Shown here piece by piece: positions 22,209-50,600 of a DNA stretch of 64,000 bases. The notes below the pieces were generated by a model, which made no database searches, had not been told where the DNA came from, and was given only the letters and a program-made list of their open reading frames with translations. Position 1 is the stretch's first letter; each line of letters begins with the position of its first letter. The stretch comes from a bacterium (GTDB taxonomy: Bacteria; Patescibacteriota; Saccharimonadia; Saccharimonadales; AWTP1-31), in the NCBI GenBank assembly GCA_030426125.1, contig JAUHZB010000002.1:67633-131632 (forward strand). The letters run 5' to 3'. The position numbers were made by a program, and so were the translations under genes.

Positions 22209-22532
22209 ATGAAACAGACTGTAGCTTTGGAAATACTATCACCTCAGCAGCTTATTCATGATTTGCCGGGCGGTATTCGTTCTGACCAGCAAATTCAGCA
22301 AATTGATGTCTGTGGAGCCAATTGTCCAGATAGACAGCCAGTCGTAAATGACTTATTAAGGTTATCTCAGGAGCTTGGCTTTGAAGTTCGAATCATATCT
22401 AGTGGTTGTCACGGAGCGATCGGCGGATGTGCAGTAAACGGGGCGCTGGAATGCGGTGCTTATGTGACCATACCAGTTTCGTCAGCAACTGGCGTAGTAG
22501 ATTCTGAAGTAATTGTTCGCTCTCGGTCTTAG
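22209..22532 (+). CDS. hypothetical Cys/Gly-rich small protein (107 aa)
   Basis: Only plus-strand gene within a roughly 38-kb minus-strand run (tRNA-Trp at 13.0 kb to clpP at 51.5 kb). It has its own promoter and a terminator hairpin. 5 Cys (CGANC, GCHGAIGGC, EC). No family recognised. Confidence 0.5.
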   Translation: MKQTVALEILSPQQLIHDLPGGIRSDQQIQQIDVCGANCPDRQPVVNDLLRLSQELGFEVRIISSGCHGAIGGCAVNGALECGAYVTIPVSSATGVVDSEVIVRSRS

Positions 22533-35884: not shown

Positions 35885-36597
35885 TATTTTGCCTCTCCTT
35901 TAGCGGTATCTTTAGCGGTATTAGTAGCAGTAGCTTTCTTGGCTGGTGCTGGTTTATCGCTGTTACTTGGATTTAGCCAGCTAGAAATTGTATCTAGGGC
36001 CTTTTTCTCGATAATGATGTTATAGGCATTAACTACGTCAAAGACGTTTAGGTAATTTGGTTGAACAACTTTAACTTCACTTAGGTTTGCACTAGCTCGA
36101 CTTATTTTTTGATCAATGTCAGCTACAACAAGTAGGGTCTGTCGTTTAGCGCCAAGTTTGTTTAGTAGTTTTGCTAGCTCGTTAGTTTTAGCTTCTTTTA
36201 GGCTAATAGAGTCAATAACAGATACTTGTTTTTGGTTAGCAGCAAGGCTCAGAGCTTGTCGAATAGCTTGTCGCTTAGCTTTAACATGCATTTTCTTAGA
36301 GTAGTTTTCTTGGCCAGTTGGACCGAAAGTGATACCACCACCTCGCCATAATGGAACCCGGATAGAACCGAAACGGGCTCGGCCGGTGCCTTTTTGACGC
36401 CATGGTTTTTTACCACCACCACGAACTAGTCCTCTAGTCTTAGTCACAGCTAGATTCTCTCGGCCGTTAGCTAGGTACATAGTGTAGGCCTGCTTGATAA
36501 GCTCATGATTGTCCACATCTAGGCCAAACACAGCCTTATCTAGAGTGGTGTTAGTGCTAGCCTTAGTTCCAGATTTGGTATAAGTTAAAGCATTCAT
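35884..36597 (-). CDS. rplD: 50S ribosomal protein L4 (Lys/Ala-rich C-terminal tail)
   Basis: 237 aa. GGGKKPWRQKGTGRARFGSIRVPLWRGGG. Confidence 0.95.
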   Translation of the reverse strand: MNALTYTKSGTKASTNTTLDKAVFGLDVDNHELIKQAYTMYLANGRENLAVTKTRGLVRGGGKKPWRQKGTGRARFGSIRVPLWRGGGITFGPTGQENYSKKMHVKAKRQAIRQALSLAANQKQVSVIDSISLKEAKTNELAKLLNKLGAKRQTLLVVADIDQKISRASANLSEVKVVQPNYLNVFDVVNAYNIIIEKKALDTISSWLNPSNSDKPAPAKKATATNTAKDTAKGEAK

Positions 36598-37232
36598 TAT
36601 TTATTACCCCCAGATTTGCTGGATATAGCTCGAACTAAGACTAGGCTTTTTCGAGGACCAGGCACTGCACCCTTAACACCAATAATGTTATTCTCAGTGT
36701 CAACTAAGGCAATTTCTTGGTTTAGGACGCTAACTTTAGCGTTGCCCATACGTCCAGCCATCTTCTTACCTTTAAAGATGTGCTGTGGGTACATAGATCC
36801 AATAGATCCTGGTTGACGAGTATTTCCTTTACCACCGTGGGTTTTTCTTTGGCGGTGGAAGTTGTGACGCTTAATTGTACCTGCGAAACCTTTACCTTTG
36901 GAAGTTCCCTGGACGTTGACTTTGTCGCCAATTGAAAAGACCTCTGCGGTCAGTTCAGATCCGACGCTGAGGTCTTCTTCTTTATCTTCTAGTCTAAATT
37001 CACGAATCACTTTGCTACTGGCTTTAGAAGGCTTTAGATGTCCTAGAAGGCTTTTATTGTTCTTGTTTGCCACTTCAGTACCAACTTGAATTGCGTTATA
37101 GCCATCTATTTCAGTGGTCTTTACTTGAGTTACAGTGTTTGGTTGAGCTGAAAGTAGGGTAACAGGACAGATAGCACCATCTTCCATTATGATGCTGGTC
37201 ATTCCAATTTTGCGGGTAACTAGTGCTTTCAT
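36597..37232 (-). CDS. rplC: 50S ribosomal protein L3
   Basis: 211 aa. KGKGFAGTIKRHNFHRQRKTHGG. Confidence 0.96.
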   Translation of the reverse strand: MKALVTRKIGMTSIIMEDGAICPVTLLSAQPNTVTQVKTTEIDGYNAIQVGTEVANKNNKSLLGHLKPSKASSKVIREFRLEDKEEDLSVGSELTAEVFSIGDKVNVQGTSKGKGFAGTIKRHNFHRQRKTHGGKGNTRQPGSIGSMYPQHIFKGKKMAGRMGNAKVSVLNQEIALVDTENNIIGVKGAVPGPRKSLVLVRAISSKSGGNK

Positions 37233-37400
37233 CTATCCTCTTGTTTTACTTTTTATCTCTAGGCTCTAGAAATAAAAACATTTGGCCGTAAATGGTTTTC
37301 ATCTGTTATAGCAAGCATTACTGGATATTAACTACCCTTTTACTTAACTGATGAACCTACTTACCAACCAATTTATTATTGATACCAATAAAGAGTAACA

Positions 37401-37431
37401 TTTATAAGCTACATCTGTCAATATGTTGCAA
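37401..37431 (-). promoter_or_regulatory. weak candidate promoter for rplC and downstream genes
   Basis: Minus strand TTGCAA (37426-37431), 19 nt, TATAAA (37401-37406); spacing is suboptimal. It sits inside the 248-nt gap between the 104-aa gene and rplC. Confidence 0.3.
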
Positions 37432-37480
37432 AAACCACACCATATTTTCATTCTTCTCTGTTATGCGTTTTGGGCCATTT

Positions 37481-37795
37481 CTAGATCACGACAGTTAGTC
37501 CAGCCGGTAAAAAATAGCCTATAAACATCGATACTAGTATGACTGCGTACTCTATTTTACGGTCAATTTTTAAGCGGTCATGGGTGGCAAGCAAGATAGC
37601 AGCTATCGCTCCCAGCGGTAATGATATTGTCGGTTTACCAGCTTGGTTCACGAAATGAACCCACTGACTACCTAGTATTAGATATACAGTTAATTTAAGT
37701 ATGTATATAGAATCTAGTGATTTGTTACTAGAACTAGATCTAGTAATTGGTTTGTTTACTGATTTCTTTTTTGTAGCTTTTTTATTTTTAGGCAT
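37481..37795 (-). CDS. hypothetical small membrane protein (104 aa, basic N-terminus, ~3 TM helices) inserted between rpsJ and rplC
   Basis: ORF track ORF. Hydrophobic segments YILKLTVYLILG, LPLGAIAAILLA, AVILVSMFIGYFLPAGL. TATACT (37804-37809) lies 8 nt before the ATG, with no Shine-Dalgarno site. Confidence 0.55.
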   Translation of the reverse strand: MPKNKKATKKKSVNKPITRSSSSNKSLDSIYILKLTVYLILGSQWVHFVNQAGKPTISLPLGAIAAILLATHDRLKIDRKIEYAVILVSMFIGYFLPAGLTVVI

Positions 37796-37823
37796 TAGCT
37801 ATAAGTATACACTATAGCAATAA

Positions 37824-38156
37824 TTACATCTTAATTTCAGCGTCACAACCGGCTGGTAAGCTGATATTCATAAGACTATCAATTGTCTTTGGTGTCGGAT
37901 CTAGAACGTCAATTAGACGTTTGTGAACCCGCATTTCAAACTGTTCACGACCTTTCTTATACACATGTGGGCTTTTTACGACTGTATAAGTAGTTTTCCT
38001 TGTAGGAAGCGGGATTGGACCAGCTATTACGGCACCGTTTCTAAGAGCGGTATCGACTATTTGTTTAGCAGCCTGATCTATCACTTTGTGATCATAGGCT
38101 TTTAGGCGGATACGAATCCGCTGTTTTGAATTTGAATCTTTTTTGGCTTCAGCCAT
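37824..38156 (-). CDS. rpsJ: 30S ribosomal protein S10
   Basis: 110 aa. [26 protein letters not shown]...RLIDV. Confidence 0.96.
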
Positions 38157-38242
38157 TTCTTCTCCTTGTAATGTAACATCCCTAGAAAGCTATATGAGCG
38201 AAACTAGTGACTTTTAGTCATTACGATTAATTTACAGAGGAT

Positions 38243-38271
38243 ATAGTAACCTACTATCAGGGATTTGTCTA
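38243..38271 (-). promoter_or_regulatory. candidate promoter of rpsJ
   Basis: Minus strand TAGACA (38266-38271), 17 nt, TACTAT (38243-38248). About 80-nt leader with a GGAG Shine-Dalgarno site before rpsJ. Confidence 0.5.
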
Positions 38272-38273
38272 CA

Positions 38274-38735
38274 CTAGTCTTTATGGTACAGTTGGCCTTC
38301 AGTTATCTTAACAGGTATCTCTGGAATTTCTGTCATCATTGCGCGTCCAATATCTTTAAAATTGCGGCTGAGCGGGTGGTTGCAAAAATAGTCTCCAGTT
38401 TCTTCATCCTTAGGGGTTGGTTCCGTTGTACATTCCTCAAGTTCGGCTAGAGACTTTATCATACTAATAGCATCTTTACGAGCTGTTTTTTCACCCCAAA
38501 GTTCTCCAAGTTCTTCAGTCTTTTTTTTGATTTTCCTAAGATTTTCTCGGGTTGGGCATGTAGCACACAGGCCTTCTTGTGCTGTGGGCTCTTGTTCTGG
38601 AGATTTTTTTGCTTTTTTTCCTGAAGATTTGTCTTTTATTCTCCTCCCAGGTGTAAACCCTTGGTCTCTCCATGTACCAACTGGCGCCACAGAATTTGAT
38701 CCAATTCCGACTGGGGGTCTCCACTCTCTACTCAT
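38274..38735 (-). CDS. hypothetical protein (153 aa), Lys/Glu-rich with CxxC...CxH
   Basis: ORF track ORF. GGAG lies 5 nt before the ATG. TAGAAT -10 at 38767-38772. No family recognised. Lies between tuf and rpsJ. Confidence 0.5.
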   Translation of the reverse strand: MSREWRPPVGIGSNSVAPVGTWRDQGFTPGRRIKDKSSGKKAKKSPEQEPTAQEGLCATCPTRENLRKIKKKTEELGELWGEKTARKDAISMIKSLAELEECTTEPTPKDEETGDYFCNHPLSRNFKDIGRAMMTEIPEIPVKITEGQLYHKD

Positions 38736-38900
38736 AACATCTCCTGTATTAATTGCAATGTGAGTAATTCTACAATAAATCTATGGCCTAGGCAACTTTA
38801 CGTCTGTTTGCTTGGCCATAGCGATTAATTCTGCGTTAACAATTAATAACTTGTCTTCTAGCGATCTTTTACTGAACGATTCGTCAGTTGTACTTGCAGA

Positions 38901-39032
38901 TTAGCGATCGGAAAGTATTTCATAGATTTCTTTAACATCATTTGAAAGAGTCTCAACAGAACCTCTCAGCGGCATCAGCTCGTCTGAAATAATTTGTCTA
39001 ATATCTTGAAGATCGTCGGATGATAAACTCAT
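38901..39032 (-). CDS. candidate small protein (43 aa, MSLSSDDLQDIRQIISDELMPLRGSVETLSNDVKEIYEILSDR)
   Basis: Below the ORF-track size cutoff. The ATG lies 6 nt after extended -10 TGaTACACT (39039-39047), immediately downstream of the tuf terminator. Predicted helical and acidic. Confidence 0.35.
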   Translation of the reverse strand: MSLSSDDLQDIRQIISDELMPLRGSVETLSNDVKEIYEILSDR

Positions 39033-39061
39033 ATGTACAGTGTATCATTTCAAAATAGTGT

Positions 39062-39090
39062 AAAAAAAGACCCGGATTTCTCCGGGCCTT
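39062..39090 (-). terminator. rho-independent terminator after tuf
   Basis: Minus strand GCCCGGA-gaaa-TCCGGGTC followed by TTTTTTT. Confidence 0.8.
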
Positions 39091-39111
39091 TACTTAAGCT
39101 TGGTTGCTAGA

Positions 39112-40296
39112 TTATTTACTAATCTTGGTAACAACACCAGCACCTACGGTTCGACCACCTTCACGGATAGCGAATCGAAGTCCTTGTTCCATAGCAATTG
39201 GAGCAAGTAGTTTTACCTTGAAAGTGACAGTGTCACCAGGCATAACCATTTCTTTGTCAGCTGGTAGTTCAACTTCTCCGGTCACGTCAGTGGTTCGGAA
39301 GTAGAACTGTGGCTTATATCCCTTGAAGAAAGGAGTATGTCGTCCACCTTCTTCTTTGGTTAGGATATATACTTCAGCGTCAAATTCGGTGTGTGGAGTA
39401 ACTGATCCTGGCTTAGCAAGAACCTGTCCACGTTCGATGTCGTCACGCTCAATTCCTCGAAGTAGGATACCAACGTTATCTCCAGCTTGTCCTTGGTCAA
39501 GATTCTTCTTGAACATTTCAACGCCAGTAACAGTAGACTTAGTAGTCTTCTTAATACCTACGATTTCGACTTCTTCACCAACCTTAACAACACCTTGTTC
39601 AACACGACCAGTAGCAACGGTACCACGACCTTTAATGCTGAATACATCTTCAATAGGCATTAGGAAAGATTTGTCTAGTTCACGCTTTGGTTCTGGGATG
39701 TAGTCATCCATAGCCTTAACTAGTTCCATGATAGCTTCTTCATCTTCTGCAGAACCATCAAGAGCCTTCGTGGCTGATCCCTTGATGATAGGAGCGTTTT
39801 CGTCAAAACCATTCTTAGATAGTAGTTCACGAATATCCATTTCAACTAGTTCAACTAGCTCTGGGTCGGCAAGGTCCATTTTGTTCATGAATACGATGAT
39901 GCTTGGTACACCAACCTGCTTTGCAAGAAGAACGTGTTCACGAGTTTGTGGCAATGGTCCGTCATTTGCACCAACAACTAGGATAGCGCCGTCAATTTGA
40001 GCAGCACCGGTAATCATGTTCTTAACATAGTCGGCGTGTCCTGGCATATCTACGTGAGCGTAGTGACGCTTTTCACTTTCGTATTCCTGGTGAGAAGTAG
40101 CGATGGTTATACCACGAGCCTTTTCTTCAGGTGCGTTGTCGATTTGGTCATAAGCGACCAACTTGTTGACATCGCTAGGTAGCTTCTTAGCTAGTACTGA
40201 AGTAATAGCAGCTGTTAGTGTTGTTTTTCCATGGTCAACGTGTCCCATGGTACCGACGTTTACGTGCGGTTTGCTTCGATCAAAATTGTCTGCCAT
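39112..40296 (-). CDS. tuf: elongation factor Tu
   Basis: 394 aa. [22 protein letters not shown]. Confidence 0.98.
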
Positions 40297-40379
40297 ATGG
40301 TTAGACTCCTATTTATTGAATTACAAATTATTAAATATTTCTTGCATTAGGTTACAGAACCCATGCGAGTTACCGATAT

Positions 40380-40407
40380 ATATTATCTAAATCGTAACTG
40401 TTTGTAA
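40380..40407 (-). promoter_or_regulatory. candidate promoter of tuf
   Basis: Minus strand TTACAA (40402-40407), 16 nt, TAATAT (40380-40385). Confidence 0.45.
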
Positions 40408-40419
40408 AGTGTTTATTTG

Positions 40420-42504
40420 TTATTTTGTGTTGCTTGCAATGATCGCTTCAGCGACGTGATTTGGTACGTCAGCATAGTGATCTAGTTCCATGCTAGAGCT
40501 AGCTCGTCCCTGGGTTGTGCTACGTAGGTTGGTAGTGTAGCCAAACATTTCTCCAAGTGGTACGAAAGCGGTGATTTCTTTTACGCCAGCGCTAAGGTCT
40601 TCCATTGATTCAATACGACCACGTTTACTGTTTAGGTCACCAATTACATCACCCATGAATTCTTCTGGAGTTACAACCACTACTTTCATGACTGGCTCCA
40701 TTAGCACAGCATTGGCGTTTTTAACACCAGCCTGAAGGGCCATGCTACCAGCAATCTTGAAGGCCATTTCATTAGAGTCAACATCGTGGAAACTTCCATC
40801 GTATAGCTCGGCCTTAATGTCTACGACTGGGTATCCAGCCAACACACCGTTAGCCATGGCTTCTTTAATACCTTCAGATACTGGCTTAATATATTCACTA
40901 GGGATCACACCGCCTTTAATTGAGTTAATGAACTCAAAACCTTCACCAGATTCATTCTGGCTAAGTCGGATCCAGACATGACCGTACTGACCACGTCCAC
41001 CAGATTGTTTAATGAACTTACCTTCAGCTTCAACAGCATCTTTCCTAATTGTTTCACGGTAAGCAACTTGTGGTTGACCAATATTAGCTTCAACTTTGAA
41101 CTCACGTTTCATTCTATCTACTAGAATTTCTAGGTGAAGCTCACCCATACCGCTAATAATGGTTTGTCCGGTCTCATCGTCAACCTTAACCCTAAAAGTA
41201 GGATCCTCTTCAGCTAGACGTTGCAGAGCGGTGCTCATCTTTTCCTGGTCCGCTTTAGTCTTCGGCTCAATAGCAATACTTACTGGTGGTTCAGGGAAAG
41301 TAATGCTTTCTAGAATGATTGGTTTGCTTTGTTCACAAAGCGTATCACCAGTTGTCGTTCCTTTTAGACCCACGATAGCAGCGATATCTCCAGCATCTAC
41401 CTCGTCTACTTCTTCACGCTTGTCAGCTTGCATTCGTACAATACGCCCGACACGTTCTTTTTCACCAGTTGAGCTATTAAGTACATAACTACCAGATTTT
41501 AGTTTTCCAGAATATACCCGGAAGTAAGCTAGCTTACCAACGAAAGGATCAGTTGCGATCTTGAAGGCTAGGCCAGCAAATGGTTCAGCTACATCTGGTT
41601 TTCGTTCCAGCTTATCGCCAGATTTTGGATCAGTTCCCCAGTTGGAGCCACGATCTACTGGGCTAGGCAGTAGTTCGTTTACTAGATCTAGGATCTTCTC
41701 AACAATTACACCACGACCGTCTCCACCAGTTACGGCAAAGAAGTTTGAGGTAAGAACTGCGCTTCGAATAGCTTGTTTAATTTCTTCTTCACTAAGGCCG
41801 TCTTCACCAACTTCGAAGTATTTCTCAAGCATCGCTTCGTCTTCGGCCACGGCATTTTCTATAAGTAGGCTTCGGTATTTCTTAACCTTATCCAGCATAT
41901 CCTCAGGTATTTCACCCTCAATTAGGGTTTTATCTGTGAATTCTTTGTAGGTGTAGGCTTTCATAGAAACTAGGTCGACTACTCCATTAATGCCTTGTTC
42001 GAAGCCAATTGGCAGGTGGATTGGGAAAGCCCGTTTATTAAGACGAGCATGAATAGTATCTAGTGACTTATAGAAATCTCCACCAGTTTGGTTGATCTTG
42101 TTAATAAAACAAATACGTGGAACATTATATTTGTCAGCTTGGCGCCAAACAGTTTCAGACTGCGATTCTACACCCATTTTACCGTCAAATACTACGATAG
42201 CACCGTCAAGAACACGCAATGAGCGTTCTACTTCAACTGTAAAGTCGATGTGCCCTGGTGTATCGATGATGTTGATCTGGTGATCTTTCCAATAACAAGA
42301 AACAGCGGCAGACACAATAGTAATACCACGTTCACGTTCTTGGGCCATCCAGTCAGTAGTTGTTTCACCGTCATGAACAGCACCAATTTTGTGCTTTAGC
42401 CCAGTACGATACAGAATTCCTTCTGTAGTTGTAGTCTTACCAGCATCAATGTGTGCGATAATTCCGATGTTTCTAATCTTGCCTAGTGGGTATTTTTTTG
42501 CCAT
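40420..42504 (-). CDS. fusA: elongation factor G
   Basis: 694 aa. [20 protein letters not shown], five-domain length. Confidence 0.98.
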
Positions 42505-42517
42505 TTATTGTTCCTTA

Positions 42518-42814
42518 TTAAACTGCACCTTCATGCATTTTTATTAATTCTTGGTCAGTGAACATTACTCTTACTAATGCACCGCCTAGCCTTTGGTATT
42601 CTTCACTCATAGTTTCTAGTACTGTTCTGTCGTTTGCAATTTCCAGGGCAACTGGTTTATAGCTAGGGTTAGCAAAATAAGGATTTTCGCGTAAATAGTC
42701 TGCCCAGCTTGCTGGCTGAGGTCGATCCTGACCTTGTAATGGAAACAAACTAAAGGCATCCGGTAGCATGCCTAACATTTCTCTTGTTGCTGATGCCGTG
42801 TCATGTAGTTGCAT
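42518..42814 (-). CDS. hypothetical protein (98 aa) embedded between rpsG and fusA
   Basis: ORF track ORF. Starts 2 nt after the rpsG stop codon and ends 13 nt before the fusA start. No family recognised. Confidence 0.5.
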   Translation of the reverse strand: MQLHDTASATREMLGMLPDAFSLFPLQGQDRPQPASWADYLRENPYFANPSYKPVALEIANDRTVLETMSEEYQRLGGALVRVMFTDQELIKMHEGAV

Positions 42815-42816
42815 TG

Positions 42817-43296
42817 CTAGAACCTTGCAAAGTGAGCAAATGCTCGGTTAGCATCGGCCATCTTATGAACATCTTCACGTTTCTTAACAGCACTACCAGC
42901 ACCGTTGTAGGCTTCAACTAGTTCAGCTGCAATTTTATCTTCCATAGAGATGCCTTTGCGTGAACGAGCAGCAGCTACGAACCACATGATTGTTAGGTGG
43001 TTTTGGCGTTGACCTTTTACTTCAAAAGGGATCTGGTAGTTAGCGCCACCAACTCGTCGTGAACGGGTTTCGACGTGTGGTCGAATGTTTTTCAGAGCTT
43101 GATCAAAAACGTCTAGTGGATTATCTATCTTTAATTTTTTAGCGGCTTTTTGCATTCCACCGTAGACCAATCTTTCGGCTAGCTGTTTCTTACCGTTTAG
43201 CATTACTCGGTTAATTACTTTTTGAACCATGACGCTGTTGTATACACGGTCAGGTTGGATATCTCGAACTAAGGCTTTAGTTACTTTACGAGGCAT
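42817..43296 (-). CDS. rpsG: 30S ribosomal protein S7
   Basis: 159 aa. [37 protein letters not shown]. Confidence 0.96.
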   Translation of the reverse strand: MPRKVTKALVRDIQPDRVYNSVMVQKVINRVMLNGKKQLAERLVYGGMQKAAKKLKIDNPLDVFDQALKNIRPHVETRSRRVGGANYQIPFEVKGQRQNHLTIMWFVAAARSRKGISMEDKIAAELVEAYNGAGSAVKKREDVHKMADANRAFAHFARF

Positions 43297-43709
43297 TATT
43301 TACTCGCTTTCTTGGTGCCGTACTTAGAGCGACTCTTTTTACGGTCACTAACACCTTGAAGGTCAAATGAACCTCGCACGATATGGTAACGAACACCAGG
43401 AAGGTCTTTTACTCGACCACCACGGATCAACACAACGGCGTGTTCTTGAAGGTTATGACCTTCTCCGCCAATGTAAGCCCAAACTTCGTGACCGTTAGTT
43501 AGACGAACACGAGCAACTTTACGAAGTGCTGAGTTTGGTTTCTTTGGTGTTTTGGTGGTTACTTTGACACAAACCCCACGCTTGAATGGTGAAGGCTTTT
43601 CATAGTTGCGAGTTTTTAGGTTATTTACCACGCGCTGAAGATGTGGTGACTTAGACTTCTTAGTCGCCTTGGCTCGTGGCTTTCTTACTAATTGATTAAT
43701 TGTTGGCAA
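43296..43709 (-). CDS. rpsL: 30S ribosomal protein S12
   Basis: 137 aa. TTG start with AAGGAAG upstream. [12 protein letters not shown]...[16 protein letters not shown]. Confidence 0.96.
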
Positions 43710-43815
43710 TTCTTTTCTTCCTTAAATTTAGGGAGATTGCTAGCGTTTATGATCAGCACGGTCTATAAACCCTAGCATCTACCTCTTATGTTTACTAATT
43801 GAAACTCTGGACAAT

Positions 43816-43824
43816 ATTCTAACA
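43816..43824 (-). promoter_or_regulatory. extended -10 promoter of rpsL-rpsG-...
   Basis: Minus strand TGtTAGAAT just after the rpoC stop. About 100-nt leader with an imperfect GCTAGGGTTTAT/ATAAACGCTAGC hairpin. Confidence 0.45.
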
Positions 43825-43830
43825 GATTAA

Positions 43831-46800
43831 CTATATCGCTGCAACCTCTTGGATGGCCTCATCTTCAACTTCCACCTCAGCTTCAGGGTCCTCAAAACCG
43901 GTTCCAACTGGTATGCGCCGTCCTAGAATTACGTTTTCTTTTAGACCGTAAAGTTGATCTACTTTACCGCTAGTAGCAGCTGCTATAAGGACACGAGTGG
44001 TGTCTTGGAAGCTGGCAGCACTTAGGAAGGAGTCGGTAGATAGTGAGGCTTTAGTGATACCAAGTAGCAATTGGTCATATTTAGCAGGCTTCTTGTTTGC
44101 CTTAACTAGGGCTTCATTAGCCTCAGCTACGGCTAGCTTACTAACAATATCTCCAGTTACGAAGTCACTATCGGCAGCATCTTCGATTTGAACTCGGCTA
44201 AACATCTGACGAACAATGATCTCAAGGTGCTTATCGGCAATGTTTTGTCCCTGTGAAGCAAAGATACTCAAGATTTCATTCATGATGTAGCGTTGGGTAG
44301 CTTCTACACCTTTTAGTTCAATCAGTTCATGTAGATTTATTGAACCGTTGGTTAGAAGATCACCGGCTTTAACCTTGTCGCCATCATTGACTACAACCTG
44401 CTTGAAGTTTGGAATTTCGTACTTAACAACACTTTGCTTAGCTGGTGTTATTATTACCTGCTTATCGGTAATCTCGGCAGTTCCAGCAATTGGTGATATT
44501 AGCGGATTAGCGCCGTCATCGTTGGCAGCTACTACATCGCCAATAGCAATTTCACTTCCGCTAGCAATTTGTGGGGTTCGGCCCTTTAGCGACAATTCTT
44601 TCTTGCTGTTTTTGTCGGTAGTAATCTGAACTACATACTTGTTGCCGTCTTCCCAGGTGCTGACAGTTCCGTCAATCTCAGCTAAGAAGGCTTGACCTTT
44701 TGGAGTCCGGACTTCAAACAACTCTTCTACACGTGGTAGACCGGTAGTAATGTCATCTCCAGCGACACCTCCTGAGTGGAAGGTCTTTAGAGTTAACTGG
44801 GTACCTGGCTCACCGATACTCTGTGCAGCAATCACACCGATTGGGTGATGTTGGGCCACTAGCTTACCGGTAGCAGGGTCAATTCCGTAAGATTTACGGC
44901 CGACACCACGTACACTTGTGCTACTTAGGGCGCTCATTATTTTTACGCCATCAATTTTACTATCTGCTTCAATCTTCTCAGCAATTTCGGCAGTTATTAG
45001 TTCACCGCGTTTGACATATTTAGCGACGTCTTCAGCAGCAAAACGACCACGAAGTCTTGAGCTGTATGGAACACCAATGACTTCAGCGTCAGAGCGGAAG
45101 ATTGCAAAGCCTGGATCATCTTCATCCTCATCGATAGTGAAGACATCTTGAGAGACATCGACTAGACGACGGGTTAGGTAACCAGAGTCAGCTGTTTTAA
45201 GAGCAGTATCGATCATACCTTTTCGGGCACCACGGGTTGCGGTGAAGTATTCTAGCGGTGTAATACCACCTTTATAGTTGGAGCGAATAGGTAACTCAAT
45301 AGCCTTACCAGTGGCGTCGGTCTGTAGACCTAGCATACCAACGGCGGTCATAACCTGACCAATGTTTCCACGAGCACCAGACACAACAGCGATAGACATT
45401 GAACTATCTTCTTTAACGAACTGATCACTAAGTTCACTTTGAACTTTGTTAACAGCGTTTTGCCAGCTCTCCACTGTTAGGCGATACCTTTCCTCTTCAG
45501 TTATTAGACCTTCGTCATACTGATCGCTAATAGTGACTGCTTTTTCTTCACCTTCATTGATCATCTGATCTAGGTTGTCGATTTCTCTAAAGTCATCCAT
45601 TCCCATAGATAGACCAGACTTGGTGGCAAATTGGAAAGCGATGTCTTTAATAGCATCAGCAATCTTAGCAGTAACCGCTTGTCCATACATGTCGTAGGCC
45701 TTAGACATAACCCCAGCAATTTTCTTCTTGGTCATTACATCATTTTGGAATGGGAAGTCTTCAGGGAATATTTCGTTGAACAGTATTCGACCTAGTGTAG
45801 AGGTTCGTTTACTGCCTCGGAAATTAACCGTAACAGGGCTCTGTAGTTGGATAGAACCTTCGTCTAGAGCCATGATAGCTTCATCTACGCTGGTGTAGTG
45901 CTTAACAGTTTCTTGAACACCAGGACGGTCATAGGTTAGGTAGTAACAACCCAGTACAATATCTTGTTCGATATGTAGAATTGGTGAACCGTCAGCTGGT
46001 TTTAGCAAGTTCATGCTGGCTGACATGATGTTCTTAGCCTCATCTTGAGCTGCATCACTTAGTGGCAAGTGAACAGCCATTTGGTCACCATCAAAGTCGG
46101 CGTTAAAGCCCTTACATACTAGAGGGTGAAGCTGAATAGCTTTTCCTTCAATCAGTACTGGTTGGAAGGCTTGAATACTTAGTCGGTGCAGACTTGGTGC
46201 TCGGTTTAGCAGTACGTACTTTCCTTTAATGACTTCATCAAGAGCGTCCCAAACTTCAGTTTCGCCAGCGTCTATCATTCGAGAGGCTGAGCGGATGTTG
46301 TGAGCGTATTCTTGAGCAATTAAATGACCAATAACGAATGGTTTAAATAGCTCTAGGGCCATCATCTTTGGAAGACCACACTGGTGGATCTTAAGCTCTG
46401 GTCCAGATACAATTACCGAACGACCAGAATAGTCGACACGTTTACCAAGTAGGTTCTGACGGAATCGACCTTGCTTCCCTTTAAGCATATCACTTAGGGA
46501 TTTTAGTCGACGTCGTTGGCCAGTAGCGGCTACTGCACGGCCAGAACGAGCGTTGTTGTTGTCAATTAAAGCGTCAACTGCCTCTTGAAGCATACGCTGT
46601 TCGTTACGACGAATTACTTCAGGAGCGTTTAGATCGATTAATTTCTTCAAGCGATTATTTCGGTTGATGACTCTTCGGTAAAGATCGTTAAGGTCACTAG
46701 TAGCGAATCGGCCACCAGTAAGTTGAACCATTGGTCGAAGATCTGGTGGGATTACTGGTAGAACAGTTACACACAGTGAGCTAGGTGTAATACCAGCTCG

Positions 46801-47652
46801 TTGCATGTTTTCTAGAAGCCTTAATCGCTTCATGATCTTCTTCTTGCGCATGCCCTTAGTTGAATCAGCTTCTTTATTTAGCTCAGCAATTACGTCTTCC
46901 AGTTTTACTTCGTCTAGTAGTTCTTTAAGAGCTGTTCCACCCATACCAACTTTTATTAGGCTACGGAATTCACTAGGAAGGTCACGGTAATCGTTTTCGC
47001 TAATAAGTTGTAGTTTGTTTAGCGAGCTTAGCTGGTTTTGAACTTCTTCAAATTCAACACTTAGTTCTTCAAGTTCTTTAGTTTGCAGTTCGGCAAGTTC
47101 TTTAATGTTGGCGTTTTCTTCTTTGCCCATAGCTTCAAAGCGAAGTTTAATAGCTTCTTTAGCTGCATTAAACTCTGCTTCACGATCAGCCATTAATTGG
47201 TCGCGCTTCTCAGTATCTACCTCTTTTATAATGTAGTTAGCAAAGTAGGCAACGCGCTCTAAGTTTTTAACTGTCATGCCCAGAACTAGACCCATGGCAC
47301 TTGGAGTTCCTCTAAGGAACCAAATATGTGCAACGGGGCTGGCTAGACTAATATGCGCCATTCGTTCACGACGTACGATGGATTTAGTAACCACTTCACC
47401 GTTTTTATCTACTGCTGCTTCGCGTGATCGAACACCTTTATATTTAGCATCATGAGGACTAATATCTTTTACTGGTCCAAAAATCCGCTCACAAAAGAGA
47501 CCATCGCGTTCTGGCTTCTGGGTTCGGTAGTTAATTGTTTCTGGTTTGGTAACTTCGCCATGTGACCAGTCTAGAATATCGCTAGGGCTGGCTACGGCTA
47601 GTCTGACTGCATCAAAGTCAGCAATATCTGTTCCTGAAGTATAGCGACGCAT
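43831..47652 (-). CDS. rpoC: DNA-directed RNA polymerase subunit beta-prime
   Basis: 1273 aa. Catalytic NADFDGDQM. The ATG overlaps the rpoB stop (UAAUG). Confidence 0.98.
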   Translation of the reverse strand: MRRYTSGTDIADFDAVRLAVASPSDILDWSHGEVTKPETINYRTQKPERDGLFCERIFGPVKDISPHDAKYKGVRSREAAVDKNGEVVTKSIVRRERMAHISLASPVAHIWFLRGTPSAMGLVLGMTVKNLERVAYFANYIIKEVDTEKRDQLMADREAEFNAAKEAIKLRFEAMGKEENANIKELAELQTKELEELSVEFEEVQNQLSSLNKLQLISENDYRDLPSEFRSLIKVGMGGTALKELLDEVKLEDVIAELNKEADSTKGMRKKKIMKRLRLLENMQRAGITPSSLCVTVLPVIPPDLRPMVQLTGGRFATSDLNDLYRRVINRNNRLKKLIDLNAPEVIRRNEQRMLQEAVDALIDNNNARSGRAVAATGQRRRLKSLSDMLKGKQGRFRQNLLGKRVDYSGRSVIVSGPELKIHQCGLPKMMALELFKPFVIGHLIAQEYAHNIRSASRMIDAGETEVWDALDEVIKGKYVLLNRAPSLHRLSIQAFQPVLIEGKAIQLHPLVCKGFNADFDGDQMAVHLPLSDAAQDEAKNIMSASMNLLKPADGSPILHIEQDIVLGCYYLTYDRPGVQETVKHYTSVDEAIMALDEGSIQLQSPVTVNFRGSKRTSTLGRILFNEIFPEDFPFQNDVMTKKKIAGVMSKAYDMYGQAVTAKIADAIKDIAFQFATKSGLSMGMDDFREIDNLDQMINEGEEKAVTISDQYDEGLITEEERYRLTVESWQNAVNKVQSELSDQFVKEDSSMSIAVVSGARGNIGQVMTAVGMLGLQTDATGKAIELPIRSNYKGGITPLEYFTATRGARKGMIDTALKTADSGYLTRRLVDVSQDVFTIDEDEDDPGFAIFRSDAEVIGVPYSSRLRGRFAAEDVAKYVKRGELITAEIAEKIEADSKIDGVKIMSALSSTSVRGVGRKSYGIDPATGKLVAQHHPIGVIAAQSIGEPGTQLTLKTFHSGGVAGDDITTGLPRVEELFEVRTPKGQAFLAEIDGTVSTWEDGNKYVVQITTDKNSKKELSLKGRTPQIASGSEIAIGDVVAANDDGANPLISPIAGTAEITDKQVIITPAKQSVVKYEIPNFKQVVVNDGDKVKAGDLLTNGSINLHELIELKGVEATQRYIMNEILSIFASQGQNIADKHLEIIVRQMFSRVQIEDAADSDFVTGDIVSKLAVAEANEALVKANKKPAKYDQLLLGITKASLSTDSFLSAASFQDTTRVLIAAATSGKVDQLYGLKENVILGRRIPVGTGFEDPEAEVEVEDEAIQEVAAI

Positions 47653-50600
47653 TATTTGACCTCCGTTTCTTGATCTTTGGTTGTTTCAGCTGACTCTTCG
47701 GCTGGTTGTTCTGAGCTTTCCGGTTTATGATCATCAAGCTCTAATATTTCAAATTCATCTTCAACGCTATCGGTTGTAACATCAACAGTTGAGGCTTCCG
47801 GTTCTGGGACGTCAACAGTTGATTGGTGCTCGCCTTCGTCTTTAATGCTTTTAGATAGGATATTTTCGGCATCCACTGATTCACCTGAAGAAATAAGGTC
47901 AACCTTTAGGTTCAGTCCTTGTAGTTCTTTAACTAGAACGTTGAAGCTTTCTGGGACTTTTGGTCCTACTATCTCGGTACCCTTAATGATAGATTCGTAG
48001 GCCTTAGAACGACCGAATACATCATCAGACTTAATGGTTAGCATTTCTTGTAGAGTGTTGCTTGCGCCATAAGCTTCAAGCGCCCAAACTTCCATCTCTC
48101 CGAAACGCTGACCACCGTTTTGAGCTTTACCGCCAAGTGGTTGCTGAGTAACCATAGTATATGGTCCAGTAGACCGAGCGTGAATCTTGTCGGCAATCAT
48201 GTGGTTTAGCTTGATCATGTACATGCTACCAACAGTTGTCTTTTCGCTGAATGGTTCACCGGTTCGACCATCATATAACTGTTGCTTACCATCTTCAGGT
48301 AAGCCAGCTTCACTAAGCATTGACTTAATCTTATCGGTTTCAACTCCGTTAAATGGTGGGGTTGCGACTTTAATTCCGAGAGCTTTAGCAGCCATTCCCA
48401 GGTGAGTTTCAAACAATTGTCCAATGTTCATACGACTTGGCACACCTAGTGGGTTTAAGACGATATCTACAGGTGTTCCGTCTTCATTGAATGGCATGTC
48501 TTCGACTGGTAGGATTCTAGCAATAACACCCTTGTTACCGTGACGTCCACCAAGTTTGTCGCCAACTGCGATTTTGCGCATTTGAGCTACAAAGATTTGG
48601 ATTTGCATGATCACGCCGGCTTTTAGTTCATGGCCGTTTTCGCGACTGAATACTTTGACTCCAACGACTTTACCGTGTTTACCGTTACTCATTCGCTGAG
48701 AGGTGTCACGAACTTCTTTGGCTTTTTCACCGAAGATAGCACGTAGTAGTCTTTCTTCACTACTTAGCTCTTGTTCACCTTTAGGTGTAATCTTACCAAC
48801 TAAGATGTCACCGGGGTGAACTTCAGCACCGATTCGAACAATGCCGTCTTCATCAAGATGCCTTAGAGCATCTTCAGAAACATTTGGTATATCTTGGGTT
48901 ACAATCTCAGGTCCTAACTTTGTTTCACGGACTTCAGTCATGTAGTCAACGATATGGATACTAGTAAGACTATCGTCTTCTACTAGTTTTCGGCTCAGGA
49001 TGATAGCATCTTCGAAGTTATAGCCATTCCAAGGCATGAAAGCTGTTAGTAAGTCTTTTCCAAGAGCTAGTTCACCATCAGCAACGGACATTCCTTCAAT
49101 AAGAATGTCGCCAGCTTTTACTTTATCTCCAGTGTTGACCCGGACTTTCTGGTTGATACAAGTACCTTCGTTACTGCGAACAAAGTGTAGGGCGCTATAG
49201 GTCTTTGAACCTTTGGCGTATTTAACTACTACTTCATTAGCGTTAGCCTTAGTTACTTCACCACTGGCTTCAGCGGTTACTAATTGGCCAGTATTACGTG
49301 CTACTTCGCCTTCCATACCAGTCCCAACAATTGGAGACTGTGGATTTATAAGCGGTACAGCCTGACGTTGCTGGTTACTGCCCATCAAAGAGCGATACAC
49401 ATAGTTCTTTTCAATGAATGGGATTAGAGCAGCGCTAGAACCGATAATTTGACGTCTAGATGCATCAATGTGAGTGATGTCGTTAGAATCAACCTCACCA
49501 GCAACTAGGTAGTTACGGGCACTGACACGTTCTTTTAGGAAGTATCCGTTTTCGTCTATTGCTTCACTTGCTCCGGCGATAACCGCTTTTTCTTCTTCAG
49601 CAGCATCAAGATACTCAATGGTTTTACTAACCTGAGCTTTAACTGGCCAGGTTGCTTGAGATTTAATTTTTTCTAGTTTTTTAGCAGCAGCTTCAGTGAT
49701 GGTTTTTCCTTTTTCGACGATCACTTTTCCAGATTCGTCCTCTAGGTTATAGCTGGCTACATGCCCAGCTAGCTTTTTGGCTGGTAGGGCGTTGATTACC
49801 TTAAGATATGGCGTTTCTACAAAACCATAGTCGTTAATTCGGGCATAGCTGGCTAAGTTTAGTACTAATCCAATGTTGGCACCTTCTGGAGTTTCTACAG
49901 TACAGATACGTCCATAGTGGGTAGCGTGAGCGTCACGAACTTCGAATCCAGCTCTTTCCCTAGATAGTCCACCAGGACCCATAGAGCTTAGTCGTCGTTT
50001 GTGCGCTAATTCACTAAGTGGGTTAATCTGATCCATGAACTGCGATAGCTGTGAGCTGGCGAAGAATTCTCGCACTGCTGCAACTATAGGACGAGCATTA
50101 ATAAGTTGTCCTGGAGTTACGGTTTCAATTTCGCACATACTCATGCGATCTTTGGTATTGCGCTCCATGCGAAGTAGACCGATTCTAAATTGTCGCTGAA
50201 CTAATTCACCGACTAGTTTTACACGGCGGTTAGCGAGGCTATCGATATCGTCGGCTGGCTCTCCAGTGTTTGATAAGCGAATAATCTCAGCAATGATTGC
50301 TTTTAGATCTTCTAGCCGCATTACTCGGTTCTTAGTAGTGTTTGGCACATCAAGATCAAGTCGTTTGTTGATCTTATAACGGCCAACGCGGGAGAAATCG
50401 AAGCGCTTGAAGTTATAGAACATGTTTTCTATAAGGCTTCGGGCGTTGTCTACAGTAGCTAAGTCGCCAGGTCGAAGTCGTCTATATACTTCAATTAGGG
50501 CATCATTAGTTCCCTTAGAAGGATCTTTATCTAGAGTAGTTTGGATATAGCTGGTCTTGCCAGTGTCAACATGGGCGAAAGCTTCTTTCATCTGCGCTTC

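Follow-up and report, generated by a model that had tools for sequence, protein, structure and literature searches.

A Small Protein Gene in a Replaceable Slot Between rpsG and fusA of Saccharibacteria

Introduction

Few bacterial gene arrangements are as conserved as the str operon, whose genes serve as fixed phylogenetic markers. What, then, is an additional open reading frame (ORF) doing between two of its members, i.e., between rpsG, encoding ribosomal protein S7, and fusA, encoding elongation factor EF-G? The ORF in question, which specifies 98 amino acids (aa), is found in a 64,000-nucleotide (nt) stretch of DNA from a Saccharimonadales bacterium (contig JAUHZB010000002.1, positions 67,633 to 131,632, of assembly GCA_030426125.1). 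This stretch, in its entirety, is referred to here as the window, and positions are those of the window.

As considered below, the ORF truly codes for a protein, one whose family is small, unnamed, restricted to Saccharibacteria, found directly after rpsG, and under purifying selection. Across this clade the rpsG-fusA junction itself is a replaceable slot, that is, one whose contents are gained, lost, and exchanged at gene borders. The overall reading that results, of a real gene in a replaceable slot which supplies a dispensable accessory protein made by translational coupling, is a probable one. That a gene junction otherwise among the most conserved should be breached in this way is also surprising.

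A Genuine Gene Between rpsG and fusA

The ORF occupies positions 42518..42814 of the minus strand, inclusive of its stop codon, and begins with an ATG. Upstream is rpsG (42817..43296, minus strand; 159 aa), as identified by the Pfam Ribosomal_S7 domain on orthologs and by 79-89% identity to Saccharibacteria S7. Downstream is fusA (40420..42504, minus strand; 694 aa), as identified by the EF-G Pfam domains on orthologs. Only 2 nt (42815-42816) separate the rpsG stop codon, TAG (42819-42817), from the ATG of the ORF, and 13 nt (42505-42517) separate the ORF's first stop codon from the ATG of fusA (42504). The gap between rpsG and fusA is 312 nt, with 94% of that taken up by the ORF.

Of 20,000 dinucleotide shuffles of this gap, 0.35% contain 98 or more consecutive codons without a stop (P = 0.0035). 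Codon usage scores +0.25 per codon in the frame of the ORF, the scores for the remaining five frames being -0.26 to -0.82. At the three codon positions GC is 0.57/0.40/0.30, which is near the values for S7 and EF-G, and GC content overall is equal to that of the neighboring genes. The closest relative is a short metagenomic contig (L001), where an intact ORF is found in the same place. It is 94% identical to that of the window, with 9 synonymous and 7 non-synonymous changes distinguishing the two versions. The resulting ratio of non-synonymous to synonymous substitution rates (dN/dS) is 0.19 (binomial P = 0.002 against neutrality), with that for S7 from the same two sources being 0.02. Among more distant pairs of family members, the proportion of non-synonymous differences (pN) is 0.17-0.20 versus a saturated synonymous proportion (pS) of 0.74-0.82, and, for those pairs providing comparable data, dN in the family is about 2-4 times that of the adjacent S7. 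The substitution pattern clearly indicates purifying selection, and the ORF is a genuine gene.

These same data bear on a quite different understanding of the gap, which is that it could be a non-coding leader or attenuator located upstream of fusA. Attenuators or other RNA elements are known from upstream of fusA in streptococci and in Pelagibacter (PMC2965389), and there is, within the ORF, one weak hairpin that is followed by a T-rich tail (42773-42754). Conservation is at the protein level, however, with synonymous changes in excess, and gap DNA is unconserved across species whereas the protein family is conserved. A scan of the gap found no terminator or promoter of note, with terminator-like sites consisting of consensus matches with only 3 GC pairs. 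A search of Rfam with positions 36000-48000 returned nothing at E<=1 except for a chance microRNA match elsewhere. Because of the protein-level constraint, a non-coding leader is rejected here, its probability being close to nil.

The Protein and Its Family

The product of the ORF is a protein of ~11 kDa that is acidic (pI 4.7) and free of cysteines, and on reading its sequence neither a signal peptide nor a membrane segment is evident. AlphaFold2, as supplied with an alignment of 24 sequences, predicts a compact six-helix domain (pLDDT 91.3, pTM 0.83). When 1.84 billion representative proteins were scanned exhaustively with HMMER (phmmer), there were 23 matches at E<1e-3, and 22 of these, each a 50%-identity cluster, are credible, with E values ranging from 4.6e-21 to 9e-4. 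The remaining match, P0018, is an 834-aa protein with 8 matched stretches, which was dropped as a tandem-repeat artefact.

The 22 credible relatives are 85-142 aa in length and align end to end. Conserved positions include F21, P25, P32, W37, P45, D62, R63, Q74, G78, and R82, with the family motif being F-x-L-x-P ... P-x-P-x-E-W-x-x-[FY]-L-R-x-x-P-x-Y ... A-x-D-R ... Q-x-L-[GA]-G-x-L-I-R-V. Against the family profile (alignment A2) the window protein scores 131.9 bits, with similarity that is full-length, and cysteine is essentially nil in the family (0.4% of residues). A narrower family alignment, employed in a metagenome scan, provided one extra locus. A profile search of a 5.8-billion-protein set found 8 proteins only, reflecting word-index limits, and scanning 185,579 species genomes with a back-translated pattern from the ORF itself gave no match, the family being too diverged for that method.

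Genomic context was obtained for 15 distinct family loci, and in 14 of these the family member is directly downstream of rpsG, with all of them Saccharibacteria. Spacing following the S7 stop codon is 0-4 nt in 13 loci and 44 nt in one; the ORF of the window, at 2 nt and on the same strand as rpsG, is found in this same position. For 13 of the 15 the family member is also directly 5' of fusA, with two further genes intervening in L092/L093.

Searches against described families were negative. With Pfam the best E was 0.21, which is below the cut-off, and NCBIfam gave no match. Sequence searches of the PDB (HMMER) reached E of 0.5 or worse, Foldseek against the PDB gave E of 0.76 or worse with TM scores of 0.38 or lower, and Foldseek against BFVD gave no credible match. 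The protein belongs, as judged from Pfam, NCBIfam, and the PDB, to no described ribosomal or ribosome-binding family. A phage or defence origin for the family was considered as well, and this was rejected based on IMG/VR viral contigs, which hold no relative, along with PHROGs and PADLOC, which provided only weak, single-member matches. Literature searches turned up no description of ORFs at the rpsG-fusA junction for either Saccharibacteria or the candidate phyla radiation, and the family is both new and unnamed.

A first-pass annotation of the window, made without database searches, had given the coordinates, the 2-nt and 13-nt spacings, and the sequence of the ORF, all of which were confirmed. 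It had also declared the ORF to be without recognizable family, which the Pfam, NCBIfam, PHROGs, PADLOC, and PDB searches bear out, and to be an ORFan, which the existence of 22 credible related clusters contradicts. Its proposals for what might substantiate the ORF were a conserved ORF at the same junction in relatives, purifying selection and intactness in close strains, and codon usage. Each has come out in favor of the ORF: homologs follow rpsG in 14 of 15 loci, dN/dS is 0.19 with the ORF intact in its closest strain, and codon usage is gene-like in the ORF's frame only.

A Variable Slot Across the Clade

That rpsG and fusA are normally adjacent, as the first-pass annotation supposed, is not the case in this clade. 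Surveyed were the best 80 of at least 540 S7 matches, at one genome per species, consisting of Saccharibacteria (TM7, Saccharimonadales) or unclassified Patescibacteria from metagenomes, with S7 proteins 79-89% identical to that of the window. The rpsG-fusA gap is less than 130 nt in just 11 of these 80 relatives, and is 150-2003 nt in the other 69. Same-strand ORFs, called so as to include frames that are open upstream into rpsG, occupy 70% or more of the gap in 60 of the 69, and 50% or more in 68. The first such ORF starts between -12 and +15 nt from the S7 stop codon in 52 of 69, with a median of 5 nt after the stop. Occupied slots contain from one to four small, same-strand ORFs in series, and these mostly specify acidic proteins.

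For 86 slot proteins the median length is 104 aa and the median pI is 4.9. Their cysteine content is 2.5% versus 0.4% for other proteins of the window, and 42 of the 86 possess four or more cysteines. The usual pattern in the cysteine-rich slot proteins is an N-terminal C-x(2-7)-C, often then followed by proline, with a second pair of cysteines 40-70 residues further on. The window ORF is not of this four-cysteine class, having neither the N-terminal pair nor the second pair, and hhalign comparison of its family with five four-cysteine groups gave probabilities of less than 1%. A search with one four-cysteine subfamily matched only itself, and the structure predicted for that subfamily (pLDDT 60) is too poor for use.

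Slot proteins for the most part resemble neither known families nor each other. Pfam gave no credible match for 84 of them, phmmer comparison of 110 pooled proteins (the 86 slot proteins plus the family alignment) left 66 as singletons, and profile-profile comparison of slot groups, including the window family, found no link, with probabilities of 9% or less. The profile-profile comparison gave no sign of a common origin for the slot families. In homologous slot pairs, ω (i.e., dN/dS) is 0.06-0.19 wherever it can be estimated, with dS saturated in two family pairs. Given these low ratios, other slot ORFs too are functional genes.

This lack of detectable sequence similarity between slot ORFs of different species is nonetheless what would be expected were the ORF a translated spacer, with passage of ribosomes coupling or tuning translation of fusA, or preventing polarity, and with the peptide itself functionless. 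The start and stop of the ORF, each tight against its neighbor, would be expected as well. A functionless peptide, on the other hand, should not display a dN/dS of 0.19, nor other estimable slot pairs ω values so low, nor should columns be conserved across family members that are only 25-50% identical. The globular fold is also predicted with confidence, fusA has a strong ribosome-binding site of its own, and 11 relatives manage without any spacer at all. Protein-level constraint results in rejection of this explanation too, which is considered to be very improbable.

Certain details of individual slots may be mentioned. Public gene calls for two four-cysteine slot proteins, P0028 and P0029 (versus L007 4484-4759 and L039 745-1041), begin too far downstream, at a later ATG, and lack the N-terminal cysteine pair. 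In the cultured, naturally transformable, and genetically tractable Southlakia epibionticum ML1, EF-G is found at 450636-452723 and S7 at 453190-453669 (PMC10633639, Table S1). The 466 nt between them (452724-453189) hold no annotated gene (PMC10633639), and likely a slot ORF has been missed there. Three relatives, L012, L025, and L062, display a GC-rich hairpin and then a T run directly after the rpsG stop codon (e.g., AGCGCCCGAGAGGGCGCTTTT), and in this sub-clade the slot and fusA may as a consequence form a separate transcription unit. The same three share a conserved 37-64-nt segment located deeper in the gap.

Replacement Rather than Divergence

Have the contents of the slot been replaced, or have they simply diverged beyond recognition? 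Divergence can be gauged against the flanks, here S7 plus EF-G residues 1-200. In the window family, ORFs are 67-73% identical where these flanks are 92-96% identical. Pairs of relatives with the least-diverged flanks (pN 0.007-0.021), however, possess occupants which are unrelated or absent. For L014 and L017 (flank pN 0.010) these are a 97-aa four-cysteine protein versus a 133-aa cysteine-free protein; for L005 and L007 (0.007), a gap of 2 nt versus a 92-aa ORF; for L002 and L009 (0.021), two four-cysteine proteins that are unrelated; and for L060 and L032 (0.019), a 76-aa ORF versus no ORF. More diverged pairs (flank pN 0.024-0.055), by contrast, retain occupants that are 58-73% identical, with that of L002, for example, 58% identical to that of the more distant L010 (flank pN 0.055).

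Homology between DNAs ends at the S7 stop codon and restarts at the fusA ribosome-binding site. In a neighbor-joining tree of the flanks, which is of low resolution, the window family is scattered among carriers of other families. The window's nearest species-level neighbors (L003, L004, L006, and L011) all have different occupants. As close relatives carry unrelated occupants or none, the contents of the slot have been replaced and not merely diverged. Saccharibacteria are naturally competent (PMC10633639), and homologous recombination through the conserved flanks, rpsG and fusA, is consequently a plausible means of exchange.

Other Junctions, Modules, and Insertions

Small ORFs are found at other str operon junctions as well. 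Between rpsL and rpsG, a junction which is empty in the window genome, they are present in 16 of 69 relatives, are 56-91 aa in length, and usually overlap both neighbors by a few nt. The fusA-tuf junction is longer than 150 nt in 38 of 69 relatives, in which it contains from one to three small ORFs. One family is found both in L003, in the rpsG-fusA slot, and in L069/L070, in the fusA-tuf slot.

Sharing can also involve only parts of proteins. A C-terminal module of ~30 residues (S/T-P-x-E ... TPEEL..D..LI.R.L) is found in three otherwise unrelated slot proteins, one being P0016 of the window family (L091 502-930), another a four-cysteine protein (L014 4482-4772), and the third from L044 (5301-5540). 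This points to module shuffling among slot proteins.

In L031 (4427-5523) and L044 (4440-5293) the slot contains a block whose two ends are marked by a direct repeat, 34-55 nt long, of the 3' end of rpsG. Of the two copies, the inner one still codes for the C-terminus of S7, with a cassette ORF found directly after. About 250 nt of the block are 97-99% identical between the two species. Its only sizeable ORF, which is on the reverse strand and of 136 or 180 aa, had no Pfam, PHROG, or PDB match, and no recombinase was recognized. The block looks like a small element that inserts at the end of rpsG and, in doing so, rebuilds the end of that gene. The window has no direct repeat of the rpsG 3' end.

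Expression and Possible Function

Gene order along the minus strand of the window is rpoB-rpoC-rpsL-rpsG-[ORF]-fusA-tuf, followed by the S10 and spc ribosomal gene clusters, with rpsL (43296..43709, minus strand; S12, 137 aa) overlapping the start of rpsG by 1 nt. As the gap contains no convincing promoter, terminator, or RNA element, the ORF presumably is co-transcribed with rpsL, rpsG, and fusA. Ribosomes terminating on rpsG, just 2 nt upstream, would then translate the ORF via termination and re-initiation, giving rise to a high rate of synthesis that would be linked to that of S7. A weak Shine-Dalgarno-like motif, AAGG (42823..42826, minus strand), lies within the last rpsG codons and 8 nt 5' of the ORF's ATG, and may play a role in initiation or re-initiation; the S7 C-terminal codons GCAAGG or GCGAGG are recurrent among relatives. 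The ORF ends with a double stop, TAA TAA, the second overlapped by AAGGAA (42511..42516, minus strand), the Shine-Dalgarno motif of fusA, which is located within the 13-nt spacer and 6 nt 5' of the fusA ATG. An AAGGAA-like motif precedes fusA in most relatives, and from this site of its own fusA would be translated. The first-pass view of the ORF as a genuine str operon gene, so placed as to be co-transcribed and translationally coupled, is in keeping with both these spacings and the coding evidence.

What such a protein might do is a separate matter. One proposal, which follows the first-pass suggestion of a ribosome- or elongation-factor-associated accessory protein, is that it is a dedicated translation accessory factor that binds the ribosome, S7, or EF-G, e.g., an acidic escort of S7 or a modulator of EF-G, with its position allowing for matched synthesis. 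Consistent with this are the 13 of 15 family loci that begin 0-4 nt after the S7 stop codon, an acidic product whose neighboring ribosomal proteins are basic, purifying selection, and a compact fold which is confidently predicted and which would carry the conserved polar residues D62, R63, E67, Q74, and R82. The slot, however, is empty in 11 of 80 relatives and elsewhere holds unrelated proteins, even in near-identical backgrounds. Other junctions hold similar small ORFs, with one family found in two different slots, and nothing similar is seen among ribosome-associated families or structures (NCBIfam, Pfam, PDB, Foldseek). Nor does operon membership say much about function. When non-overlapping ORFs of 45 aa or longer are counted across the window, 70 of 77 prove to be on its minus strand, making of it one long co-directional gene array, and with co-directionality the rule it provides only weak evidence for shared function. 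A dedicated translation factor thus defined is rather doubtful, and a conserved core role in translation is unlikely.

Alternatively, slot proteins may be products of conflict, i.e., interchangeable decoys or protectors of EF-G or of the ribosome against inhibitors that come from the actinobacterial host, from competitors, or from phages. Such conflict would explain both the rapid change and the replacement seen between close relatives alongside purifying selection within families. The location beside fusA and tuf is suggestive too, as the products of these genes are targets of many actinomycete antibiotics, and FusB-type proteins provide a precedent for small proteins that protect EF-G. Against conflict are PADLOC and PHROGs results that consist of single chance matches only, the absence of a match to FusB or to any other solved structure, and no measured sign of positive selection. 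This proposal is wholly inferential, and its probability is low.

A dispensable accessory protein thus remains the favored reading of the ORF's product, which, from these comparisons, would be a lineage-specific binding protein and not a core translation factor, since close relatives either lack it or possess something unrelated. A partner in the translation machinery (S7, EF-G, or the ribosome) is possible, if on the unlikely side. That the ORF merely exploits a highly expressed, permissive junction in order to perform some unrelated job is a serious contender, if short of probable, and what probability remains is assigned to conflict-type or other roles. More speculative, and distinctly unlikely, is that str operon junctions collectively serve as an exchangeable 'cassette rack' for small acidic proteins, among them the window family and the four-cysteine class, that bind the ribosome, S7, EF-G, or EF-Tu, with these swapped between lineages by natural transformation via the conserved flanks. 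If true, there would exist a fast-evolving layer of modifiers or protectors of the translation apparatus, as shaped by antibiotic-producing hosts, by competitors, or by phages.

Several considerations weigh against the favored reading of dispensable protein, replaceable slot, and translational coupling. One family member, P0014, lies on a 599-nt contig (L095) where it is flanked not by S7 and EF-G but by other small ORFs, one of the two starting with a C-x2-C motif. A strict place after rpsG, kept at 25-50% identity, could reflect a functional tie to S7 besides descent. The survey describes the 80 best S7 matches, the flank tree is a neighbor-joining tree of 359 residues, and the structure prediction draws upon 24 sequences. 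Remote homology between slot families may also lie below detection, with alignments thin, and it is from spacing that both coupling and abundance are deduced.

Implications of an Occupied Junction

About 86% of clade species, as sampled, carry within the rpsG-fusA junction a small gene that is either unannotated or hypothetical, and whose identity shifts between close relatives. Brought to light by this, in organisms whose genomes are very reduced, is a pool of small proteins that are dark and presumably highly expressed. The question raised is whether these are lineage-specific modifiers of the translation machinery or, instead, passengers at a site of strong expression. There are practical consequences as well: gene callers miss or truncate slot ORFs, and concatenated-marker pipelines span a junction that is prone to recombination.

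Other Small ORFs of the Window

Three further ORFs may be noted, none with a Pfam match. Within the tuf-rpsJ interval there is a 153-aa ORF (38274..38735, minus strand) with C-x2-C-P ... C-x17-C, which is the same cysteine pattern as that of the four-cysteine rpsG-fusA slot proteins of other species. As it is 376 nt removed from tuf, which precedes it, and 117 nt from rpsJ, which follows, its true start may be further downstream. In the rpsJ-rplC interval is a 104-aa ORF (37481..37795, minus strand), whose product, with its lysine-rich N-terminus and three hydrophobic stretches, looks like a membrane protein. The third ORF, of 107 aa (22209..22532), is on the plus strand, which is rarely used, and has C-x3-C-P and then C-x6-C-x8-C; the four-cysteine small-protein pattern accordingly is found outside of the str operon too.

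Comparison with Known Systems

The streptococcal rpsG-fusA attenuator and the Pelagibacter RNA found upstream of fusA involve the same junction and, likewise, an unusually long gap (PMC2965389). Unlike these leader RNAs, the gap here is conserved coding sequence under purifying selection, with no Rfam match and no convincing terminator. Its hairpins are weak consensus matches and its substitution pattern is of a coding type, which together place it outside of the fusA leaders and attenuators.

With FusB and FusC there is likeness in the idea of small accessory proteins acting on EF-G, along with the four cysteines of many other slot occupants. FusB is a two-domain protein of ~210 aa with a C-terminal, four-cysteine zinc-binding domain. 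The window protein, by contrast, is cysteine-free, half that size at 98 aa, and without a sequence or fold match to PDB chains (HMMER and Foldseek), and is not a protein of FusB type.

Eukaryotes possess dedicated acidic chaperones of basic ribosomal proteins, e.g., Yar1 for uS3 and Tsr2 for eS26. The window protein would be similar in being a small, acidic, helical protein whose synthesis potentially is tied to that of a ribosomal protein which is very basic and binds RNA. It differs from Yar1 and Tsr2 in showing no sequence or fold similarity to them and in coming from a slot that in close relatives is empty or otherwise filled. Bacteria are not known to possess such an escort of a ribosomal protein.

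The block seen in L031 and L044, with its direct repeat of 34-55 nt from the rpsG 3' end, recalls integrative elements that insert at 3' ends of conserved genes, classically those for tRNA or tmRNA, and restore them. It differs in that the target would be a protein gene, rpsG, and in that no recombinase was recognized, and the repeat is absent from the window.

Comparable too are replacement hot spots, in which hypervariable gene slots lie amid conserved core genes, and integron cassette arrays, with both of which the slot shares fixed, conserved flanks around from one to four variable, unrelated, small, same-strand ORFs. As with replacement hot spots, close relatives differ in their occupants, with breakpoints at gene borders. 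Unlike integrons, the slot has rpsG and fusA as its flanks, with no integrase, and neither attC-like nor inverted repeats were seen. Positions 42300-43000 of the window contain no repeat of 14 nt or more, whether direct or inverted; multi-cassette relatives display short two-copy repeats only, and the window ORF is not an integron cassette. Exchange would instead be by recombination through these flanks. Different from both hot spots and integrons are the tightness with which occupants follow the upstream gene, with a median distance from the S7 stop codon of 5 nt, and the location of the slot inside of the str operon, between two essential translation genes. The slot's behavior, that is, repeats a known theme, that of a variable region between conserved genes, and does so newly from within the str operon.

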